DNA of 64,000 nucleotides from IMG/VR virus record IMGVR_UViG_2529292920_000018, positions 2,322 through 66,321 of that record; one strand, 5' to 3'. Positions 23,420-34,377 of the stretch are shown here, in pieces (position 1 is the stretch's first letter; each line of letters opens with the position of its first letter). Position numbers and translations under genes: made by a program. The DNA is from a virus (Duplodnaviria > Heunggongvirae > Uroviricota > Caudoviricetes). The notes under the pieces are model-generated. The model did no database searches and was not told the origin of the DNA. It worked only from the letters and a program-made list of their open reading frames with translations.

Positions 23420-23609
23420 TCCCTAAACCACATTAACAGAAATCCCGCCATCCCTGCCGCATCATGAAAGAACGACCAGCCCGGCACCCGAAAGCCGGGC
23501 TGGTCATCGCCCCACAGGAATGCGCTGTGAGCCGACCAAGGTTCAGTCAGTCTCGCGAGACCTGACCAGACTGCCATATTTTTTAATAATTGTAAAAGGC
23601 TTACAGATT

Positions 23610-24374
23610 ATGAAAATGCAGACATTACCCATCGTGCCGTGGATTGGTGGCAAACGCCGCCTTGCAAAACACATTCTGCCGCTGTTTCCGGCGCATGAAT
23701 GTTATGTGGAGCCGTTTTGTGGGGCAGCAGCGCTCTATTTTCTTAAGACACCCGGCAAGATCGAAGTCATCAATGATATCAACGGTGAACTGGTGAATCT
23801 GTACCGGGTGGTAAAGCATCACCTGGAAGAATTTGTCCGCCAGTTCAAATGGGCGCTGGTCAGCCGTCAGATCTACAAATGGCTGCAGATCACCCCGGAA
23901 GAAACACTGACGGATATCCAGCGTGCGGCACGGTTCTACTACCTTCAGAAGCAGGCGTTTGGCGGCAAGGTGGCAGAGCACAGCTTCGGTACCTCCACCA
24001 CATCCCCGCCACGCTTCAACCTGCTACGTATTGAAGAAGAACTGTCAGCGGCACACCTGCGGCTTTCCAGAACAGTCATAGAACACATGGACTGGCAACA
24101 GTGCATTGAGCGTTATGATCGTCCGCACACGCTGTTCTACTGCGACCCACCGTACCTGGGTACGGAAGGCTATGGTGTGGATTTTCCTGAAGGGAACTAC
24201 TCGCGGCTGGCAGAGCTGGCCCGGTGCATCAGAGGAAAAATGATAATTTCGGTGAACGACATCCCGCAGATGCGCGAGGTGTTCACTGGACTGAACATAC
24301 AGACAGTGAATATCAACTACAGTCTGGCGGGTAAACCCACGCCGCGCCGTGAACTGCTAATCTGCAACTTCTGA
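23610..24374 (+). CDS. dam: DNA adenine methyltransferase (Dam / D12 class)
   Basis: DPPY catalytic motif and FCGAAALYF SAM-binding motif; start set at ATG 23610 (MKMQTLPIVPW). Confidence 0.85.
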   Translation: MKMQTLPIVPWIGGKRRLAKHILPLFPAHECYVEPFCGAAALYFLKTPGKIEVINDINGELVNLYRVVKHHLEEFVRQFKWALVSRQIYKWLQITPEETLTDIQRAARFYYLQKQAFGGKVAEHSFGTSTTSPPRFNLLRIEEELSAAHLRLSRTVIEHMDWQQCIERYDRPHTLFYCDPPYLGTEGYGVDFPEGNYSRLAELARCIRGKMIISVNDIPQMREVFTGLNIQTVNINYSLAGKPTPRRELLICNF

Positions 24375-26753: not shown

Positions 26754-28523
26754 ATGACCCCGGCACTGACTGAAAAACTGGTTGAAACAGCCCGCGCGGC
26801 ACGTGACGCGGGGCATGGTAAACGCGGTGCAATATACGACGCTGCCTGTGCTGAACTTGGCATGTCCCGCGCCACTCTGCTGCGCAGGCTGAAGGAGGTA
26901 TCTGTGACTGATAAACGCAAAAAACGCGCCGATGCCGGGCGCAGCGCCCTGACCCGCGACGAAGCCGCGCTGATATCTGCCACACTGCGTGAGGCCACCC
27001 GCAAGAACGGTAAGCGTCTCTATTCCATCGCAGATGCAGTGGAAACCCTGCGGGCTAACGGCTTTATCACCGCAGGCAGAACAGATGAAACCACCGGTGA
27101 GTTTTTCCCGTTGTCTGAAGATGCCATCAGCCGTGCTCTGCGTAACTATGGCCTGCACCCGGAACAACTGGATGCCCCTGCACCACATACCGAAGTGGCC
27201 AGTCTGCATCCCAATCATGTCTGGCAGATTGACGCCTCACTCTGCACGCTTTACTACCTGAGCAATGGACATAAAGGGCTGCAGGTGATGGACAGCGCGA
27301 AGTTCTACAAGAACAAGCCCGCTAACCTTGCCCGTATCGCCAGTGACCGCGTGTGGAGTTACGAGATTACCGACCATGCCAGCGGCTGGATTTACGTTGA
27401 GTATGTGACGGGCGCGGAATCAGGTGAGAACCTGTGTTCTGTGCTTATCAACGCCATGCAGGAGCGTGGCGGCGCAGACGTGCTGCACGGCGTGCCGAAA
27501 ATACTCTATCTCGACCCCGGCTCGGCAAACACCGCGGGTATGACGAAAAACATGTGCCGCTCACTGGGCATCGACCTGATAGCGCACAAGCCGCATAACG
27601 CCCGCGCCACCGGACAGGTGGAAAAGGCGCGTGACATTATCGAACGCAAGCTGGAGCCGGGTCTGAAGTTCCGGCCGGTTCACAGTCTGGAAGAACTCAA
27701 CGCGCTGGCCGCGAAATGGCGCAGCCACTTTAACGCCACGGCTGTTCACAGCCGCCACGGTAAAACCCGCACGGATATCTGGCTGAAGATTACTGCTGAG
27801 CAGCTGAAAAAAGCGCCTTCCGTTAAGGTATGTCGTGAACTGGCTGTGGCGGCACCAGAACTCCGCAAAGTCACGCCAAAACTTCGTGTCTCGTTCCGGG
27901 GCACTGAATTTGACGTATCAACGGTACCGGGCGTACTGGTTGGTGAAAAACTGATGATTACCCGTAACCCATGGCGCAGCGATGTGGCACAGGTGGTTCT
28001 GACTGGTGAGGACGGCCACGAGACGTTCTTCCTGGTCGAAGAGGTCAGAAAGAACGAGTTTGGCTTTGCTGAAGGCGCGGCGGTATTTGGCGAAAGTTAC
28101 AAAGCCCTGCCGGAAACCCCGGCACAGATGGCGGCAAAAGAAACCGAAGCGCTGGTTACCGGTACAGACAACGCCGCAGATGCAGCCGCCGCACGCAAGG
28201 CGAAGGCGCTGCCGTTCGGCGGGCGGCTTGACCCGTATAAACATATCGACGACACCACACTTCCGGCCTATATGCCGAAGCGTGGTCAGGCCTCTGACGT
28301 ACGCGGGCCGCGCACTGAACAACGTCCCATGACTCATGTGGAGGCCGCGAAAGCCCTGCGCGATAAGTTCAGCACCGACGGCCTTACCTGGACGCCGGAA
28401 CATTACCGCCAGTTAACGGCACAGTACCCGGACGGCGTACCGGAAGCCGCACTGGATGAAGTCATGGCCACGCTGACCACACCGGCCCGCAGCAGTGTTA
28501 TCAGCATTGTTAACGGCAACTGA
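26754..28523 (+). CDS. DDE transposase (Mu A-like, integrase-core fold)
   Basis: 589-aa ORF with HVWQIDASL and YLDPGSANT catalytic-core-like motifs; followed by an AAA+ target-selection ATPase. Confidence 0.8.
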   Translation: MTPALTEKLVETARAARDAGHGKRGAIYDAACAELGMSRATLLRRLKEVSVTDKRKKRADAGRSALTRDEAALISATLREATRKNGKRLYSIADAVETLRANGFITAGRTDETTGEFFPLSEDAISRALRNYGLHPEQLDAPAPHTEVASLHPNHVWQIDASLCTLYYLSNGHKGLQVMDSAKFYKNKPANLARIASDRVWSYEITDHASGWIYVEYVTGAESGENLCSVLINAMQERGGADVLHGVPKILYLDPGSANTAGMTKNMCRSLGIDLIAHKPHNARATGQVEKARDIIERKLEPGLKFRPVHSLEELNALAAKWRSHFNATAVHSRHGKTRTDIWLKITAEQLKKAPSVKVCRELAVAAPELRKVTPKLRVSFRGTEFDVSTVPGVLVGEKLMITRNPWRSDVAQVVLTGEDGHETFFLVEEVRKNEFGFAEGAAVFGESYKALPETPAQMAAKETEALVTGTDNAADAAAARKAKALPFGGRLDPYKHIDDTTLPAYMPKRGQASDVRGPRTEQRPMTHVEAAKALRDKFSTDGLTWTPEHYRQLTAQYPDGVPEAALDEVMATLTTPARSSVISIVNGN

Positions 28524-28533
28524 GGAGGGAAAC

Positions 28534-29700
28534 ATGCTGGTACTGAAGCAGCAACTGAAAGAGGCCCGTATTCCACAGGCGGTGGTGGCGAGAGCTGTCG
28601 ATGTTTCTGAGGCCACGCTGGCCCAGATTGTGAATCATAACGCGTGGCCCCGCACCAGCCCCGGAGAAGTGCGCCGGCGTCTTGCGTCCTGGCTGGAAAG
28701 TCAGGGGATTGATACAACGAAGAGTTTTGATGCTGTACAGGGCGCGGCCACGCCCCGTACAGCGGGTACCACAGATAAAACGAGCCTCAGTGAGGAAGAG
28801 AATATGTTACTCAAAAAACAGGTGTTATTTCCAGCAACCAAAAAAGCGTTTGGTCTTTTCCGTGACCCGTTCGCCGACGAAGCCATGCAGGGTTCTGATG
28901 ATGTGTTCACCACCCCGGATATTCGCTACGTGCGTGAGGCGTTGTACCAGACAGCCCGTCATGGTGGGTTTATGGCCGTCATCGGTGAGTCCGGTGCGGG
29001 TAAATCCACGCTGCGCCGCGACCTGACTGAACGTATCAACCGCGAGAATGCGCCGGTAATTGTTATCGAGCCATACATCATCGCTATGGAAGACAACGAT
29101 GTGAAAGGGAAAACCCTGAAGGCAGCAGCGATTGCCGAAGCCATTATCAGTACCATCGCACCACTGGAAAGCATCAGACGCAGTCAGGACGCCCGCTTTC
29201 GCCAGTTGCATCGCGTCCTGAAAGACAGCAGCCAGGCGGGGTTCAGCCACGTTCTGGTGATTGAGGAGGCCCACAGTCTGCCCATTCCGACACTGAAACA
29301 CCTCAAACGCTTTTTTGAGCTGGAGTCCGGTTTCAAAAAACTGCTGTCCATCGTGCTGATTGGCCAGCCGGAACTGGCGACAAAACTGTCTGAACGCAAT
29401 ATGGAAGTCCGTGAAGTCGTTCAGCGCTGTGAGGTGGTCGAACTTCTGCCTCTGGACAATAACCTTGAAGAGTTTCTGACGTTCAAACTGCAACGGGCCG
29501 GTAAACAACTGACGGACATTATGGACGCCAGCGCAGTGGATGCCATACGTGCCCGCCTGAGCAATCCGGGAAGTCATCGTAAAAATATGGTCAGCCTGCT
29601 GTATCCGCTGGCCGTCAGTAACCTGGTAATAGCCGCCATGAATCTGGCCGCTGAAATCGGGGTTCCACAGGTCAACGCTGACGTTGTCAAAGGGGTTTAA
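28534..29700 (+). CDS. transposition ATPase (Mu B / TniB-like AAA+)
   Basis: Walker A GESGAGKST, Walker B VLVIEEAH; start at ATG 28534 with GGAGG upstream. Confidence 0.8.
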   Translation: MLVLKQQLKEARIPQAVVARAVDVSEATLAQIVNHNAWPRTSPGEVRRRLASWLESQGIDTTKSFDAVQGAATPRTAGTTDKTSLSEEENMLLKKQVLFPATKKAFGLFRDPFADEAMQGSDDVFTTPDIRYVREALYQTARHGGFMAVIGESGAGKSTLRRDLTERINRENAPVIVIEPYIIAMEDNDVKGKTLKAAAIAEAIISTIAPLESIRRSQDARFRQLHRVLKDSSQAGFSHVLVIEEAHSLPIPTLKHLKRFFELESGFKKLLSIVLIGQPELATKLSERNMEVREVVQRCEVVELLPLDNNLEEFLTFKLQRAGKQLTDIMDASAVDAIRARLSNPGSHRKNMVSLLYPLAVSNLVIAAMNLAAEIGVPQVNADVVKGV

Positions 29701-29702
29701 TA

Positions 29703-29972
29703 ATGAAATCCACCACAGGTATCAACCAGCAAATCAGCAAAGTGCAGTCAGCCATTATGGCGCTTAAGGCGACGAACACGGATGTACAAAGCATCACCAT
29801 CAGGGGTAACAAACCTGTCATCCGCGTTTCCCGGAGTGCGCATTGCATGCGCATGCTTGAGCAGGGAAAGGCCTGTTATCTGTATACCGGTCATGACCAC
29901 AGGGGACATTTCCGTCAGGGCGTTTTCGAACTGCACGGCTGTCGCGTCGTGTGGCCGGAATCTTTGTGGTAA
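29703..29972 (+). CDS. hypothetical early protein
   Basis: 89-aa ORF immediately after the B-like gene. Confidence 0.45.
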   Translation: MKSTTGINQQISKVQSAIMALKATNTDVQSITIRGNKPVIRVSRSAHCMRMLEQGKACYLYTGHDHRGHFRQGVFELHGCRVVWPESLW

Positions 29973-29999
29973 TCAGCACAACAGGAGGAGTCATAAAAT

Positions 30000-30530
30000 A
30001 TGGCAAAAAGTACAAAAGGGGCAAAACGTATCAAAGCCGCAGCAGCACTCTGGGTGCCGGGGACACGCGAAGAGGTCATTGAGGGAATCAGACTGCTTGG
30101 TGACGCGCAACGTGAACTGGTCAGGGCTGAAACAGAAATGAATGACACCATTGGCGACATCACTGCACGTTATGCCCCGCTCACCGAGAGCCTGAAAAAA
30201 CGCATGGCCGAACTGCAGTCCGGTATCCAGACATGGTGTGAGGCGCACCGTGATGAACTGACCGGCAACGGGAAGGTGAAGTTCGCTAACCTCACCACCG
30301 GCGAGGTGCAGTGGCGAAACCGTCCGCCGTCAGTCAGCATTCGCGGGGCGGATAATGTCATTGAACTGCTGAGACGTCTGGGGCTTGAGCGCTTTATTCG
30401 TGTAAAGGAGGAAATAAATAAAGATGCCATTCTGAATGAAAAAGAGGCTGTGAAAAATATTCCCGGTATTACCATAAAAAGTGATATTGAGGATTTTTCA
30501 ATAATTCCTTTTGAGCAGGATGTGCAGTAA
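30000..30530 (+). CDS. gam: host-nuclease inhibitor Gam-like protein
   Basis: 176-aa ORF with Mu Gam family features. Confidence 0.7.
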   Translation: MAKSTKGAKRIKAAAALWVPGTREEVIEGIRLLGDAQRELVRAETEMNDTIGDITARYAPLTESLKKRMAELQSGIQTWCEAHRDELTGNGKVKFANLTTGEVQWRNRPPSVSIRGADNVIELLRRLGLERFIRVKEEINKDAILNEKEAVKNIPGITIKSDIEDFSIIPFEQDVQ

Positions 30531-30627
30531 ACACACCACGTTAATTATTTAATAAAAACATTTTCTTTTTTATTCCGGCGTCAGCGCCGCGGGCTTCTGC
30601 ACGCCGGAAACAGAGGAGAATTAAATT

Positions 30628-30822
30628 ATGATATTTAAATGTATTCAGTGCGAGAGGGATATAACAGCCCTGCGTTTTCACAGCGCCATCGCCGTGATGT
30701 CCGGTAAGTATCACATACCTGCAGTACGTGTCACCCTGGTCTGCCCGTACTGCAGCCAGCATTTTTCGGCGGACGTGCCCGTCATGGAATTCTCCCGCCC
30801 TGACAGGGAGGACGCGCAATGA
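30628..30822 (+). CDS. small Cys-rich zinc-ribbon protein
   Basis: CxxC ... CPYC motifs in 64 aa. Confidence 0.4.
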   Translation: MIFKCIQCERDITALRFHSAIAVMSGKYHIPAVRVTLVCPYCSQHFSADVPVMEFSRPDREDAQ

Positions 30823-31091
30823 TTACCCCACAGGAAGCACGACAGCGCACCCGAACTCTTGTTGAACACTATGTCAACGAGTGTGAATGCCGCGACCTCA
30901 CCGATGTGAAGCACGTCCTGACGGCGCTAATCAGCATGGTCACACAGGCCATTGTGGCGACCAACGGAAAGGAGGCTGCCCTGCAGGTACTGATGAACAC
31001 ACTCACCCACACGGCAGAGCATGAGGTGCCGTACCGGATGGAAACCACTGCAGAAGGCGGCCTGCACATCACCGTCAGCCGGAAGCACTGA
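30819..31091 (+). CDS. hypothetical protein
   Basis: 90-aa ORF overlapping the upstream stop by 4 nt. Confidence 0.4.
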   Translation: MITPQEARQRTRTLVEHYVNECECRDLTDVKHVLTALISMVTQAIVATNGKEAALQVLMNTLTHTAEHEVPYRMETTAEGGLHITVSRKH

Positions 31092-31100
31092 GGGCGCGGC

Positions 31101-31397
31101 ATGACACGAAACACCGAACTCACCCGCACCGCCCTCTACCGTCTGGCCCTGCAGCGTTTCGGGCCGGACGCACAGGCCCTGAAACTGGCAGAAGAGGCCG
31201 CTGAACTGGCGGCCAGTGCCGCCCGCAACCTGAACGGACAGGGCAGCGAAAGTGACCTCGCGGCAGAGCTGGCAGACGTGGAAATCATGACAGAGCAACT
31301 GCGCCTTCAGGGGATGGACCGGCTGATTGACTTCCACAAACAGAAAAAACTGGAACGTCTGGCTGCACGACTGGGCGTGATTTACACGAACGAGTAA
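31101..31397 (+). CDS. MazG-like nucleotide pyrophosphohydrolase domain protein
   Basis: EEAAEL ... AELADVEIM all-alpha NTP-PPase-like motif pattern. Confidence 0.45.
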   Translation: MTRNTELTRTALYRLALQRFGPDAQALKLAEEAAELAASAARNLNGQGSESDLAAELADVEIMTEQLRLQGMDRLIDFHKQKKLERLAARLGVIYTNE

Positions 31398-31411
31398 CCG
31401 GGAGGCATTCA

Positions 31412-31627
31412 ATGGCTGACATACTCAGGGAAATCACCGCATGGACACTGATTCTTACTGGCCTGGCGACATGCCTCAGTGCGGGGGCAGCCCTGGCTGC
31501 CCTGCTGATGCACATAACAACACAGTGGTTATGGGAAAAGCTTAAAGCAGCATACAGCCTGAAAGAGCTGTCCGACGCTGTCCGGGCATGGAAACGGCAG
31601 AAAAATACCGGAGATACAGAACAATGA
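31412..31627 (+). CDS. small membrane protein
   Basis: 71-aa ORF with one TM helix. Confidence 0.35.
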   Translation: MADILREITAWTLILTGLATCLSAGAALAALLMHITTQWLWEKLKAAYSLKELSDAVRAWKRQKNTGDTEQ

Positions 31628-32307
31628 CAGACCAGAATAAACACATTGAGAAACTGAAAAAGTTGCTGGCGCTGGCCGCATCCGGCAACCCGCACGAGGC
31701 CGCTCTGGCACTGCGCCGAGCCCGTAAACTGATGGATGTTCACGGCATCACACATTCCGACATTGCTATGAGTGATATTGATGAAACCATCAGTCACTAC
31801 TGGCCGACAGGCAGTCTCCGTCCACCGCGCTACATGCTGGGCCTGATGAACATCATCCGCGAGGTATTTGGTGTTAACTCCATCATTCACCCCGGCACGC
31901 ATCCGTCTGTGGGGTTCTACGGCAACCGGGAACGTGCGGCACTGGCTGCATACACCTGGGAAGTGCTGGCCCGTCAGCTGAAAAAGGCGCGTCAGCAGTA
32001 TATCAGTGCACAGAACAAAAGAATAAAAACCGCCACCCGCACCAGCCGTGGAGACCAGTTTGCCGAAGGCTGGGTGCTGGCCGTTATCAGTGAAATACAG
32101 TCCTTTGCCCTGACCGATGATGAGCGTGAACTGATGCAGCAGTGGCTGGAACATAAATACCCGCAGACGCAAACCACCAGGGCGCGTAAACCGGGAAGAA
32201 GCCGCAATGGCGACGCCTCGCGCTATGCGGGGTTTCGTGAAGGGCAGAACGTCAGACTGCACCGCCCGGTCAGTGGGCAGGAACAACAGAAACTGGAGGC
32301 CAGATGA
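31624..32307 (+). CDS. DUF2786-like protein
   Basis: N-terminal IEKLKKLLALAASGNPHEAALALRRARKLM motif; start set at ATG 31624. Confidence 0.5.
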   Translation: MTDQNKHIEKLKKLLALAASGNPHEAALALRRARKLMDVHGITHSDIAMSDIDETISHYWPTGSLRPPRYMLGLMNIIREVFGVNSIIHPGTHPSVGFYGNRERAALAAYTWEVLARQLKKARQQYISAQNKRIKTATRTSRGDQFAEGWVLAVISEIQSFALTDDERELMQQWLEHKYPQTQTTRARKPGRSRNGDASRYAGFREGQNVRLHRPVSGQEQQKLEAR

Positions 32308-32523
32308 TTACGCTATCAGGTAAAAGCCGGAAATTAAAAGCCTGCCGAATATCTGCCAGATACCTTTTTGCCCGCGCCTTTTTTAAGAACGTCAGGCCGG
32401 GGATCACAATTGGTGTTATTGCCGGACGCGAACAGGTTGAAAAATACATGTCAGGTGCATGGTGGAATAACGACCCTGTCATTGCTGCCCGTAATATTCA
32501 TATCGAATGGGGAGGTATTCAGA

Positions 32524-32730
32524 ATGACTACTGAAACCATTGTCTGTTTTCTTTTCTGGTATATGTACGCAGGATCATGCAGCGCAAGACTTCATCGTTC
32601 CCTGGGCTATGGCAGGCACTACGACACCGCGCATTACATCCTGTACATGACCGCCGTCATGTTGTTCTGGCCAGTCACCCTGCCAGCTGCAACCGACATT
32701 GTTGCCGACAGACTGAAAAAAAGGAGATGA
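32524..32730 (+). CDS. small membrane protein
   Basis: 69-aa ORF with two hydrophobic helices, start ATG 32524. Confidence 0.3.
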   Translation: MTTETIVCFLFWYMYAGSCSARLHRSLGYGRHYDTAHYILYMTAVMLFWPVTLPAATDIVADRLKKRR

Positions 32731-32731
32731 T

Positions 32732-33181
32732 ATGCAGAAAAAACGCCTGATACAGCTTATCCATATTGCCCGTAATGAACTGGGTATGGATGAAGACACC
32801 TACCGCCAGATGTTACAGGGGCTGACCGGTAAAGCCTCAACCAAAGGAATGGATACCACACAACTAAACTGCGTGCTGGAATCCATGAAAAAGAAAGGCT
32901 TTCGCGTTAAACCAGCCAGAAAAGCCAGCTCCGGTTTACCGCTGGATAACCATCCGCAGTCCAGGAAAATTCGTGCGCTATGGCTTGAAATGGCTGCTGC
33001 CGGCATTGTTCGTGACCGTTCAGAAAATGCATTAGCGAGGTGGATCAAGCGGGAAACGGGCATCAGCGCCCTGCGCTGGCTCAGTACTGAACAGGCAAGC
33101 AGTGTTATTGAGAAACTGAAGAAGTGGCAGCGCAGAGCTGCGGGAGTCAAACATGAGCGACCTGAATCAGTTTCGAAGTAA
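32732..33181 (+). CDS. gemA: GemA-like regulatory protein (Mu gp16 family)
   Basis: 149-aa ORF immediately upstream of mor as in Mu. Confidence 0.7.
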   Translation: MQKKRLIQLIHIARNELGMDEDTYRQMLQGLTGKASTKGMDTTQLNCVLESMKKKGFRVKPARKASSGLPLDNHPQSRKIRALWLEMAAAGIVRDRSENALARWIKRETGISALRWLSTEQASSVIEKLKKWQRRAAGVKHERPESVSK

Positions 33182-33542
33182 GGGGCCGGAACTCCTGGTG
33201 GAACTGGCACAGCATACCTCTGAGACCGTTCGCGAGATTATTGATATTGAGCCCGAAGTTGCCGACCAGATTGGTCAGGCCGTCGCGAACCGAATGATGC
33301 AGGTCTGGGGCGGGCAAAACGTTTATTTCCCGATGGGCATGGTATGGAAGGTCAGTCAGCGCGACCGGGAAATCTTCAGGGAGTTTAACGGACGCAACCA
33401 CCACGAACTGGCCCGCAAATTTGGTGTTTCGCTTCAGTGGGTCTACAGCGTGGTTAAGCGGGTAAGAAAAGAAGAACTGGATCGGATGCAGGGCAAGCTA
33501 TTTGCTGATGAACCCGATGCAGATACGGAGAAAAAAGAGTAA
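33153..33542 (+). CDS. mor: Mor-family middle-operon transcription activator
   Basis: QVWGGQNVYFP ... ELARKFGVSLQWVYSVV Mor/C-family C-terminal HTH. Confidence 0.75.
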   Translation: MSDLNQFRSKGPELLVELAQHTSETVREIIDIEPEVADQIGQAVANRMMQVWGGQNVYFPMGMVWKVSQRDREIFREFNGRNHHELARKFGVSLQWVYSVVKRVRKEELDRMQGKLFADEPDADTEKKE

Positions 33543-33571
33543 TATCTGCAATCAGGCTGGCGCGAGTTCTG

Positions 33572-34376
<805 letters not shown>

Positions 34377-34377
<1 letters not shown>

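Follow-up and report, generated by a model that had tools for sequence, protein, structure and literature searches.

What do the small genes between the transposition genes and the GemA and Mor genes of a transposable prophage do? We examined one such block at positions 29703-32730 of a viral DNA window (the whole stretch of 64,000 nucleotides that was analyzed). A sequence-only reading of this DNA had described the block as an early-region accessory cluster with possible host-takeover or anti-defense genes. Our answer is that it is the ordinary semi-essential early gene set of a common Mu-like prophage of E. coli. More specifically, we believe, with a probability of roughly 0.75, that the block is the counterpart of the stretch of semi-essential early genes (SEE region) of phage Mu in a BcepMu-like prophage, and that its products would condition the host for replicative transposition.

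Nine packed genes in the early arm of a BcepMu-like prophage

Nine tightly packed genes fill the block, between transposase B and GemA/Mor. These genes and the flanking genes discussed below are all on the + strand. Every ORF that the sequence-only reading named is present on this strand within 29703-32730; two block ORFs, p89 (29703-29972) and the 76-amino-acid p76 (32304-32534), were absent from its list. Upstream are transposase A (26754-28523; rve/DDE type; Pfam rve, E = 1e-8), which is 93-94% identical to its copies in the nearest relatives from outside E. coli, and the transposition ATPase B (28534-29700; ExeA/AAA_22; Pfam AAA_22, E = 4e-20). The block begins 2 nt past the stop codon of B. 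Downstream are GemA (32732-33181; gp16 family; PF06252, E = 8e-41) and the middle-transcription activator Mor (33153-33542; PF08765, E = 1e-43). Mor is the final gene ahead of the prophage end, whose junction we mapped to about 33704. In other strains, the same prophage end adjoins different host genes, which indicates transposition. The carrier is a BcepMu-like transposable prophage of E. coli. The block is found in 629 of 5,426 complete E. coli genomes, and PhiKM, a phage that is classified in Bcepmuvirus, is 98.5% identical to the whole block. A Dam methyltransferase is encoded in the same early arm.

RefSeq annotates all nine block ORFs, and all nine proteins align end to end with PHROG families (E = 1e-36 to 1e-77). 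The PHROG labels are "unknown" except for Gam and an NTP-PPase, and scans of all nine proteins against NCBIfam and with PADLOC gave no matches. Five of the nine lack a functional homolog. A search of the block against Rfam also found nothing. We regarded a 333-amino-acid antisense ORF (31285-32286) as a shadow ORF, given that four + strand genes with family matches and low pN/pS overlap it.

The intergenic gaps in the block range from -29 to +27 nt, except for one of 97 nt, and it is from this packing that we infer co-transcription. We found no promoter-like site on the + strand inside the block, and its promoter- and terminator-like sites were no more frequent than in shuffled sequence. The block would be transcribed as the distal part of an early operon (ner-like, DUF3102, A, B, block, GemA, Mor), and transcription would start once the repressor is lifted.

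Homologs of Kil and Gam

We compared the block and flanking proteins directly to the early proteins of Mu and BcepMu with phmmer, and only B, Gam, GemA, and Mor had matches. This comparison missed p89, whose relationship to Kil emerged only with a family profile. p89 (29703-29972) has 89 amino acids, belongs to phrog_2041 (E = 1e-36), and is annotated in RefSeq as "HI_1482 family protein." A profile built from 49 members of its family matches Mu Kil over its full length with 42.6 bits and matches gp07 of BcepMu with 13.7 bits; using hhalign, the family aligns to Mu Kil with 81.9% probability (E = 1e-5). In family maps of related loci, p89 either directly follows B or is separated from it by one ORF. 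By profile similarity, then, p89 is a homolog of Kil (gp5) of Mu. Mu Kil is a septation inhibitor, and given the homology, p89 would block host cell division.

Gam (30000-30530) had been recognized by the sequence-only reading, and it is a clear case: it hits PF07352 (E = 1e-40) with 139.5 bits, as compared to a cut-off of 28.3, and covers profile positions 1-148 of 149. It also matches phrog_491 (E = 2e-73) and shares 62% identity with Mu Gam across 169 amino acids. Gam is Ku-like: it binds the ends of double-stranded DNA and is an inhibitor of host nucleases. Given its similarity to Mu Gam, the Gam of the block would shield linear phage DNA ends from RecBCD and other exonucleases.

The idea of host takeover is thus supported, by homology, for Kil and Gam. 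Both are standard Mu semi-essential genes, an outcome that the sequence-only reading had itself set against its proposal.

Across 42 related loci (see below), the Gam slot holds either Gam or DUF3164, and never both. This strict mutual exclusivity in one slot suggests the possibility, which we consider unlikely, that DUF3164 is a functional substitute for Gam and a new DNA-end-protection or RecBCD-evasion protein. We searched the literature on DUF3164 and on PhiKM and found no functional information.

MazG98, a divergent member of the MazG superfamily

MazG98 (31101-31397) is a 98-amino-acid protein and a candidate small all-alpha NTP pyrophosphohydrolase of the MazG/PRA-PH superfamily. It carries the conserved acidic metal-binding motif EExxE ... 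ExxD. E31, E32, E56, and D59 are invariant in 20 close homologs; among 61 distant relatives, E31 and D59 never vary, and conservation is at least 90% for E32, E35, and E56. The predicted fold is an all-alpha helical bundle, which agrees with solved members of the superfamily, with a single long third helix in the AlphaFold2 (AF2) model instead of a clean four-helix bundle.

MazG98 differs from the MazG/PRA-PH NTP pyrophosphohydrolases of known structure (PDB 1vmg, 3c90, 5ie9, and 2q5z, which is iMazG) in that it scores below the Pfam gathering thresholds. Its best Pfam match is to PRA-PH (E = 0.023; 15.5 bits, below the cut-off of 21.3), and it reaches no curated threshold for MazG, MazG-like, or PRA-PH. 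Five of the 61 distant relatives match MazG at E ≤ 1e-3. Searches of PDB with the single sequence or a narrow profile gave nothing meaningful, and a Foldseek search with the model gave no significant match; a PDB profile match to 5ie9 had E = 0.0095. Over 10,000 representative clusters make up this uncurated family branch. Judging from the conserved motif and these profile matches, the sequence-only reading was right to see a MazG-like protein here, and MazG98 is a real member of the superfamily.

Based on its predicted fold and acidic residues, MazG98 is probably a metal-dependent nucleoside-triphosphate pyrophosphohydrolase. It might act on (d)NTPs, either non-canonical or canonical, or on (p)ppGpp, and its role would be nucleotide-pool sanitation or alarmone removal. 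BcepMu encodes a pyrophosphatase (gp06) in the corresponding interval, and comparing the MazG98 family to gp06 with hhalign gave no significant alignment (the ELAD motif alone was aligned), so we do not claim that the two are orthologs. We also ran tblastn with MazG98 against 50,697 phage records and found only four matches. These were in phages of E. coli or Klebsiella, and the gene had no annotated function.

The sequence-only reading had raised the possibility that the MazG-like protein depletes signaling nucleotides. By analogy, there is a precedent in Atd1, a MazG-like enzyme of Pectobacterium phage PcCB7V that, as reported, depletes (p)ppGpp and protects against TIR-STING toxicity (bioRxiv 10.1101/2022.06.09.495361). 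Atd1 is the sole precedent, and the phage matches to MazG98 gave no support for kinship between the two. Depletion of signaling nucleotides is a hypothesis.

A conserved scaffold with lineage-specific inserts

To compare gene content, we used the 42 related loci, out of 80 diverse loci, that contain both B and GemA. Gene content is mosaic, with 84 families, 49 of which are singletons. Identity to the nearest relatives is 39-75% for the block proteins, as compared to 84-97% for A, B, GemA, and Mor. Enterobacterial loci share a scaffold that consists, in this order, of Kil, Gam or DUF3164, Zn64, MazG, DUF2786, TM68, GemA, and Mor, and lineage-specific small genes are inserted at the gene junctions of this scaffold. 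We also computed pN/pS for each gene by pooling 40 near-identical loci from IMG/VR. The scaffold genes are under purifying selection, with pN/pS of 0.04 for Gam, 0.07 for Zn64, 0.10 for the DUF2786 protein, 0.17 for p89, and 0.22 for MazG98. The least constrained genes, with weak constraint on each, are p90 (0.57), TM71 (0.64, from 6 changes), and p76 (0.79).

Of all the block genes, the most widely conserved one encodes a 227-amino-acid protein (31624-32307) with the domains DUF2786 (PF10979, E = 5e-11) and DUF7168 (PF23771, E = 1e-25), as the sequence-only reading had anticipated for DUF2786. Diverse Proteobacteria carry this gene, at 80 Mu-like loci. Its usual place is upstream of GemA; in the 42 loci with B and GemA, it lies 5' of GemA in all but one. 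It has the look of a core phage function and not of an arms-race gene. In the structure model of DUF7168, the core has a possible KH-like fold. Compared to type-I KH domains, whose fold is beta-alpha-alpha-beta-beta-alpha, a coil stands in for helix alpha1, the sequence identity is 12-18%, and there are extra N- and C-terminal helical parts. An alignment of 26 sequences had no conserved GXXG loop. Searches of PDB with the single sequence or a narrow profile found nothing meaningful, and our search of the literature on DUF2786 and DUF7168 found no functional information. Speculatively, this conserved core early protein, with its possibly KH-like alpha/beta core, may bind nucleic acid or may be an adaptor.

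Zn64 (30628-30822; phrog_3401, E = 1e-40) is a 64-amino-acid C4 zinc-ribbon protein that the annotation of PhiKM omits. All four cysteines of its CxxC...CPxC motif are invariant in 14 homologs. Searching 5.8 billion proteins for homologs yielded only 16 clusters. None of these had a functional name, and the sole Pfam domain among them was Mor (PF08765), in one weak match of 110 amino acids. Zn64 did not match the profile of the Com family, and its only Pfam match at E ≤ 0.01 was a sub-threshold one to Sgf11 (C2-type); a Com-like or Ogr-like regulator lacks profile support.

The start of p90 (30819-31091; 90 amino acids; phrog_3691, E = 2e-55) overlaps the stop of Zn64 by exactly 4 nt, just as the sequence-only reading had stated. 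The partnership that it saw in this overlap is not supported. Zn64 is present in 20 of the 42 loci and the gene downstream is usually MazG98, whereas the lineage-specific p90 is found in one locus (by family clustering of the 42 loci) or two (by jackhmmer across all 80). Zn64 and p90 are not a conserved two-gene module, and given this co-occurrence pattern, we rejected a toxin-antitoxin-like pair.

The two small membrane proteins of the sequence-only reading are borne out, one more firmly than the other. TM71 (31412-31627; 71 amino acids; phrog_3958, E = 1e-41) is a single-pass membrane protein with one strong hydrophobic segment (residues 14-32, with a KD19 maximum of 1.98). It is lineage-specific and was found in none of the 80 diverse loci. 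TM68 (32524-32730; 68 amino acids; phrog_6436, E = 1e-44) is probably a two-segment membrane protein: it has two hydrophobic stretches with a borderline KD of 1.52, and 14 homologs share these stretches as well as the pattern W..AELHR..G..RY...WP..LP. TM68 is present in 16 of the 42 loci. Between the DUF2786 gene and TM68 is p76 (32304-32534; 76 amino acids; phrog_3681, E = 7e-55), which is rare outside E. coli. The only copies at 72-73% amino-acid identity are in prophages of Mixta and Intestinirhabdus (loci L044 and L048). Zn64, p90, TM71, p76, and TM68 would be small accessory proteins of the early block, and TM71 and TM68 may, speculatively, target the envelope or contribute to superinfection exclusion. 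Also, the weak constraint on p90, TM71, and p76 would fit young or marginal genes.

Comparison to Mu and BcepMu

The semi-essential early genes of Mu are dispensable for plaques, improve growth, and are expressed early, from Pe. Among the genes described for the SEE region are kil, gam, sot, arm, and cim, as well as gemA and mor (PMC4553209). Both this region (kil to mor, or Mup05-Mup17) and the block lie on the early strand between B and gemA/mor, have a Kil-family gene straight after B and an orthologous Gam, and are crowded with small genes of unknown function. Given this position and the mosaic content in relatives, the description of the block as an early-region accessory cluster was apt. 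In contrast, the seven other genes of the block have no detectable homolog among gp6-gp15 of Mu, and the A and B of this prophage are of the BcepMu (rve/ExeA) type, unlike those of Mu.

The early region of BcepMu (gp07-gp03) shares the backbone of this prophage: B is similar to gp08 (phmmer, E = 8e-146), GemA and Mor are homologous, and gp07 is a weak match to the Kil family. But where the block has Gam, Zn64, DUF2786, and small membrane proteins, BcepMu has DUF3164, HU, and an SSB-like gene. We did not find DUF2786, Zn64, or TM68 in either Mu or BcepMu, so the block is a positional analog of the Mu SEE region and not its gene-for-gene counterpart.

Alternative explanations

Could the block be a dedicated anti-defense island, in which MazG98, Zn64, p90, TM71, p76, and TM68 each neutralize a specific immune system, for instance with MazG98 hydrolyzing (p)ppGpp or nucleotide immune messengers? 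It is true that Gam genuinely inhibits a host nuclease, and Atd1 provides a precedent for (p)ppGpp depletion. The mosaic gene content, the divergence of the block proteins relative to A, B, GemA, and Mor, the raised pN/pS of the three lineage-specific inserts, and the Dam methyltransferase in the same early arm would also fit. However, early regions of Mu-like phages are generically mosaic (PMC4553209), and, aside from Gam, no characterized anti-defense family was matched by the PHROG labels, PADLOC, or NCBIfam. The four phage matches to MazG98 lack functional annotations and so do not support kinship with Atd1. Also, Zn64, MazG98, and DUF2786 are members of the scaffold under strong purifying selection, and housekeeping phage roles fit them at least as well. 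We consider such an island unlikely. Slightly less likely still is a bolder proposal, in which MazG98 and its conserved upstream neighbor Zn64 would form an unrecognized anti-defense module of transposable phages that hydrolyzes (p)ppGpp or immune messengers early, one or more of the fast-evolving inserts p90, TM71, and p76 might be new inhibitors of E. coli defenses, and, separately, DUF3164 might replace Gam.

A different explanation is that the scaffold genes other than Gam (DUF2786/DUF7168, Zn64, and MazG98) are core accessories of replication or transposition, such as factors that bind DNA or RNA and enzymes that sanitize the nucleotide pool, with no part in host takeover or anti-defense. 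This could account for the breadth of DUF2786 across Mu-like loci, the low pN/pS, the modeled resemblance of DUF7168 to nucleic-acid-binding KH domains, and the HU, SSB-like protein, and pyrophosphatase in the BcepMu interval. But the absence of DUF2786, Zn64, and TM68 from Mu and BcepMu excludes a universal requirement, and DUF7168 lacks the GXXG motif that defines nucleic-acid binding by KH domains, so we view this explanation as improbable. As for p76, TM71, and p90, they have the highest pN/pS of the block (from few changes), they lack Pfam domains, and they are missing from nearly all of the diverse relatives, as might be expected of non-functional, chance, or recently arisen ORFs in intergenic inserts. 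Yet they are intact in every allele that we examined, they match PHROG families from end to end (E = 1e-41 to 1e-55), and their starts and stops overlap those of their neighbors, as in translationally coupled operons. Also, p76 has been retained in the Mixta and Intestinirhabdus prophages. Chance ORFs are a very improbable explanation.

Implications

We therefore favor the view of the block as a counterpart of the Mu SEE region. These results leave the current understanding of Mu-like phages unchanged. They do offer some experimental handles: the Kil homolog as the first gene, the 98-amino-acid gene of the MazG superfamily, and the distinction between the scaffold and the lineage-specific inserts. 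The mutual exclusivity of Gam and DUF3164 is a small, testable lead on DNA-end protection in transposable phages that lack Gam. The prophage is found in about one in nine complete genomes of E. coli, including ST131 (such as the O25b:H4-ST131 strain 4993). Because it is so common in E. coli, we predict that these early genes are expressed upon induction in clinically important strains.

A nine-gene block in the early arm of a Mu-like prophage

The window contains a transposable prophage of the BcepMu-like type, with its late genes on the - strand, up to ~22 kb and extending beyond position 1 on the left. The early arm (+ strand, ~22.1 to 33.5 kb) encodes a D12 Dam methyltransferase, a divergent CI-type repressor (- strand), a DUF3102 protein, the rve-type transposase A (26754-28523, +), the AAA+ protein B (28534-29700, +), the block, which B directly precedes, GemA (32732-33181, +), and Mor (33153-33542, +). 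The block is 98.5% identical to that of Escherichia phage PhiKM (classified in Bcepmuvirus). Of 5,426 complete E. coli genomes, 629 contain it, in most cases with 95-99% identity. The D12-class N6-adenine DNA methyltransferase (23520-24374, +; PF02086, E = 9e-29) lies 5' of the repressor/ner region, and an anti-restriction function is plausible.

The block genes, all on the + strand, are p89 (89 aa, 29703-29972), Gam (30000-30530), the zinc-ribbon protein Zn64 (64 aa, 30628-30822), p90 (90 aa, 30819-31091), the MazG-like MazG98 (98 aa, 31101-31397), the membrane protein TM71 (71 aa, 31412-31627), a DUF2786+DUF7168 protein (31624-32307), p76 (76 aa, 32304-32534), and TM68 (68 aa, 32524-32730). 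The ORFs that the sequence-only reading had listed, which left out p89 and p76, are all there, and p90 does overlap the stop of Zn64 by 4 nt. RefSeq annotation carries all nine genes, and each is a full-length match to a PHROG family (E = 1e-36 to 1e-77). Intergenic spacing is -29 to +27 nt, except for 97 nt after Gam, and no + strand promoter-like sites were found inside the block. Promoter- and terminator-like sites were not in excess of shuffles. Rfam had no match to the block. We infer that the genes are co-transcribed. A 333-aa antisense ORF (31285-32286, -) overlaps MazG98, TM71, and DUF2786; we took it to be a shadow of the conserved genes on the + strand.

On its right side, the Mu-like prophage ends at ~33704 (terminal sequence ...TCTAATCA), within a tail gene of the P2-like "late control D" type (region 33543-34377) that is cut down to 234 aa and covers positions 11-190 of 305 in Pfam GPD. 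A P2-like prophage runs on from ~33.7 to ~54.7 kb (- strand). Other E. coli genomes have the same prophage end next to cbtA or ycaL, the pattern that transposition would produce. The junction with "late control D" is not spanned by any one record of the collection; NZ_CM181230.1 starts within the prophage, which could be split across its origin.

Kil, Gam, and the counterpart in Mu

Gam matches PF07352 (E = 1e-40); aligned over 169 residues, it shares 62% identity with Mu Gam. RefSeq names p89 only as "HI_1482 family protein." A profile of 49 p89 family members matches residues 4-74 of the 74 in Mu Kil (gp5), with 42.6 bits, and weakly matches BcepMu gp07. Independently, hhalign of a 15-sequence p89 alignment against Mu Kil gave 81.9% probability (E = 1e-5). 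Homology is further supported by a shared C-terminal motif, GCR(V/I)(V/I)W, and by the identical position after B. In family maps of related loci, the gene directly follows B or comes one ORF later. By these sequence comparisons, p89 is a Kil-family protein.

The early region of Mu is ordered kil, gp6-gp9, gam, gp11-gp15, gemA, mor; it goes by the name of semi-essential early region, and the genes described in it are kil, gam, sot, arm, cim, gemA, and mor (PMC4553209). The block is the positional counterpart of this region. Mu and the window prophage share Kil, Gam, GemA, and Mor; we found no homologs of the other seven block genes in Mu or BcepMu. The corresponding interval of BcepMu holds gp07, the gp06 "pyrophosphatase," DUF3164, HU, and an SSB-like gene.

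Conserved scaffold and variable inserts

We compared 80 loci that contain DUF2786, with one genome per species. The nearest relatives outside E. coli (Pantoea, Mixta, Pseudocitrobacter, and others) share 84-97% identity with the window in A, B, GemA, and Mor, but just 39-75% in the block proteins. Clustering the ORFs between B and GemA from 42 loci gave 84 families, 49 of them singletons. The enterobacterial scaffold is ordered Kil-like, Gam or DUF3164, Zn64, MazG98, DUF2786, TM68, GemA, Mor.

Gam and DUF3164 (such as L043:5795-6406; PF11363, E = 3e-80) share one slot, after the Kil-like gene. Across the 80 loci (L043-L122), Gam occurs alone in 27, DUF3164 alone in 41, and the two together in none. 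Among 16 lineages, eight have Gam, seven have DUF3164, and one is mixed, due to a single Serratia genome that has both kinds of prophage, one each. DUF3164 may substitute functionally for Gam.

The only sizeable intergenic gap of the block (30531-30627) coincides with the edge of this cassette. It is AT-rich; an inverted repeat (CCGGCGT...ACGCCGG) comes next, along with a strong ribosome-binding site (GGAGG) for Zn64. Synonymous divergence peaks in Gam and Zn64 (pS 0.14-0.15, versus 0.02-0.03 in A and B), which, together with the cassette boundary, suggests recombination at the gap.

In the E. coli lineage, gene junctions carry p90, TM71, and p76 as insertions; elsewhere, the three are almost missing. 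The pairing of Zn64 with p90 in the sequence-only reading is thus not conserved. Instead, the usual 3' neighbor of Zn64 is MazG98: 13 loci have both, seven have Zn64 alone, and one has MazG98 alone.

The inserts are also the least constrained genes. Pooled over 40 near-identical IMG/VR loci and computed against the window allele, pN/pS (rough values, as the alleles are non-independent and some counts are small) was 0.04 for Gam, 0.07 for Zn64, 0.10 for DUF2786, 0.17 for p89, 0.22 for MazG98, 0.57 for p90, 0.64 for TM71, and 0.79 for p76.

MazG98 and the other proteins

MazG98 has no Pfam match at threshold, but it matches phrog_2245, "NTP pyrophosphohydrolase" (E = 5e-34). E31, E32, E56, and D59 are invariant in 20 close homologs. 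Searching 1.84 billion representatives with a profile gave 10,716 relatives (E ≤ 1e-3); in the 61 that we examined, E31 and D59 are invariant and E32, E35, and E56 nearly so, and five of these 61 match Pfam MazG with E ≤ 1e-3. Once broadened, the profile hit 5ie9 in the PDB (E = 0.0095). Foldseek with the AF2 model (pLDDT 83) gave no significant match. We accept MazG98 as a member of the MazG superfamily. Orthology with BcepMu gp06 could not be demonstrated. A tblastn search of 50,697 phage records gave four matches, all in E. coli or Klebsiella phages, where the gene has no annotated function.

The DUF2786/DUF7168 protein (Pfam E = 5e-11 and 1e-25) is the most widely distributed in the block; Gamma-, Beta-, and Alphaproteobacteria all have homologs in their Mu-like prophages. 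In its AF2 model (pLDDT 86), a helical hairpin at the N terminus is followed by a beta-alpha-beta-beta-alpha core and then by helices at the C terminus. The modeled DUF7168 core appears KH-like; the GXXG loop that defines nucleic-acid binding by KH domains is not conserved in the family, and sequence searches found no solved homolog.

In Zn64, CxxC...CPxC is invariant across 14 homologs. Its family comprises 16 clusters, none named, and the only Pfam domain in them is Mor (PF08765), in one 110-aa weak match. In PhiKM (PQ738613), 23520-23741 corresponds to window 30628-30822; in its GenBank annotation, the conserved zinc-ribbon gene is missing and an ORF on the opposite strand is called there. 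RefSeq annotations of E. coli call Zn64. TM71 has a single clear transmembrane segment, and TM68 has two conserved hydrophobic stretches and the pattern W..AELHR..RY..WP..LP.

Proposed role of the block

We propose, with a probability of roughly 75%, that the block is a distal early operon of the Mu semi-essential type, whose products would appear upon induction and target the host. By analogy with Mu, Kil (p89) would arrest division and Gam would shield DNA ends from RecBCD. MazG98 is predicted to act on nucleotide pools, and the conserved DUF2786/DUF7168 core protein and small accessory proteins would round out the operon.

The sequence-only reading had suggested host-takeover or anti-defense genes. 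That reading is partly supported: homology makes host takeover likely for Kil and Gam, but direct support for anti-defense is limited to Gam. It had also named standard Mu semi-essential genes as evidence against itself; since Kil and Gam are such genes, it lies partly within its own clause. The mosaic gene content and the fast-evolving inserts favor an anti-defense island, and Atd1, a phage MazG-like enzyme reported to deplete (p)ppGpp and blunt TIR-STING toxicity (bioRxiv 10.1101/2022.06.09.495361), is a precedent for nucleotide depletion, by analogy and not as evidence on MazG98 itself. We consider such an island unlikely. A role in core replication would fit the conservation of DUF2786 but is more improbable still, as both Mu and BcepMu lack DUF2786.

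Hundreds of genomes already carry annotation for the block. As leads, we would keep the probable assignment of the "HI_1482 family" to Kil, the putative KH-like core of DUF7168, the alternation of Gam and DUF3164, and an uncurated branch of small MazG-like proteins with over 10,000 clusters.
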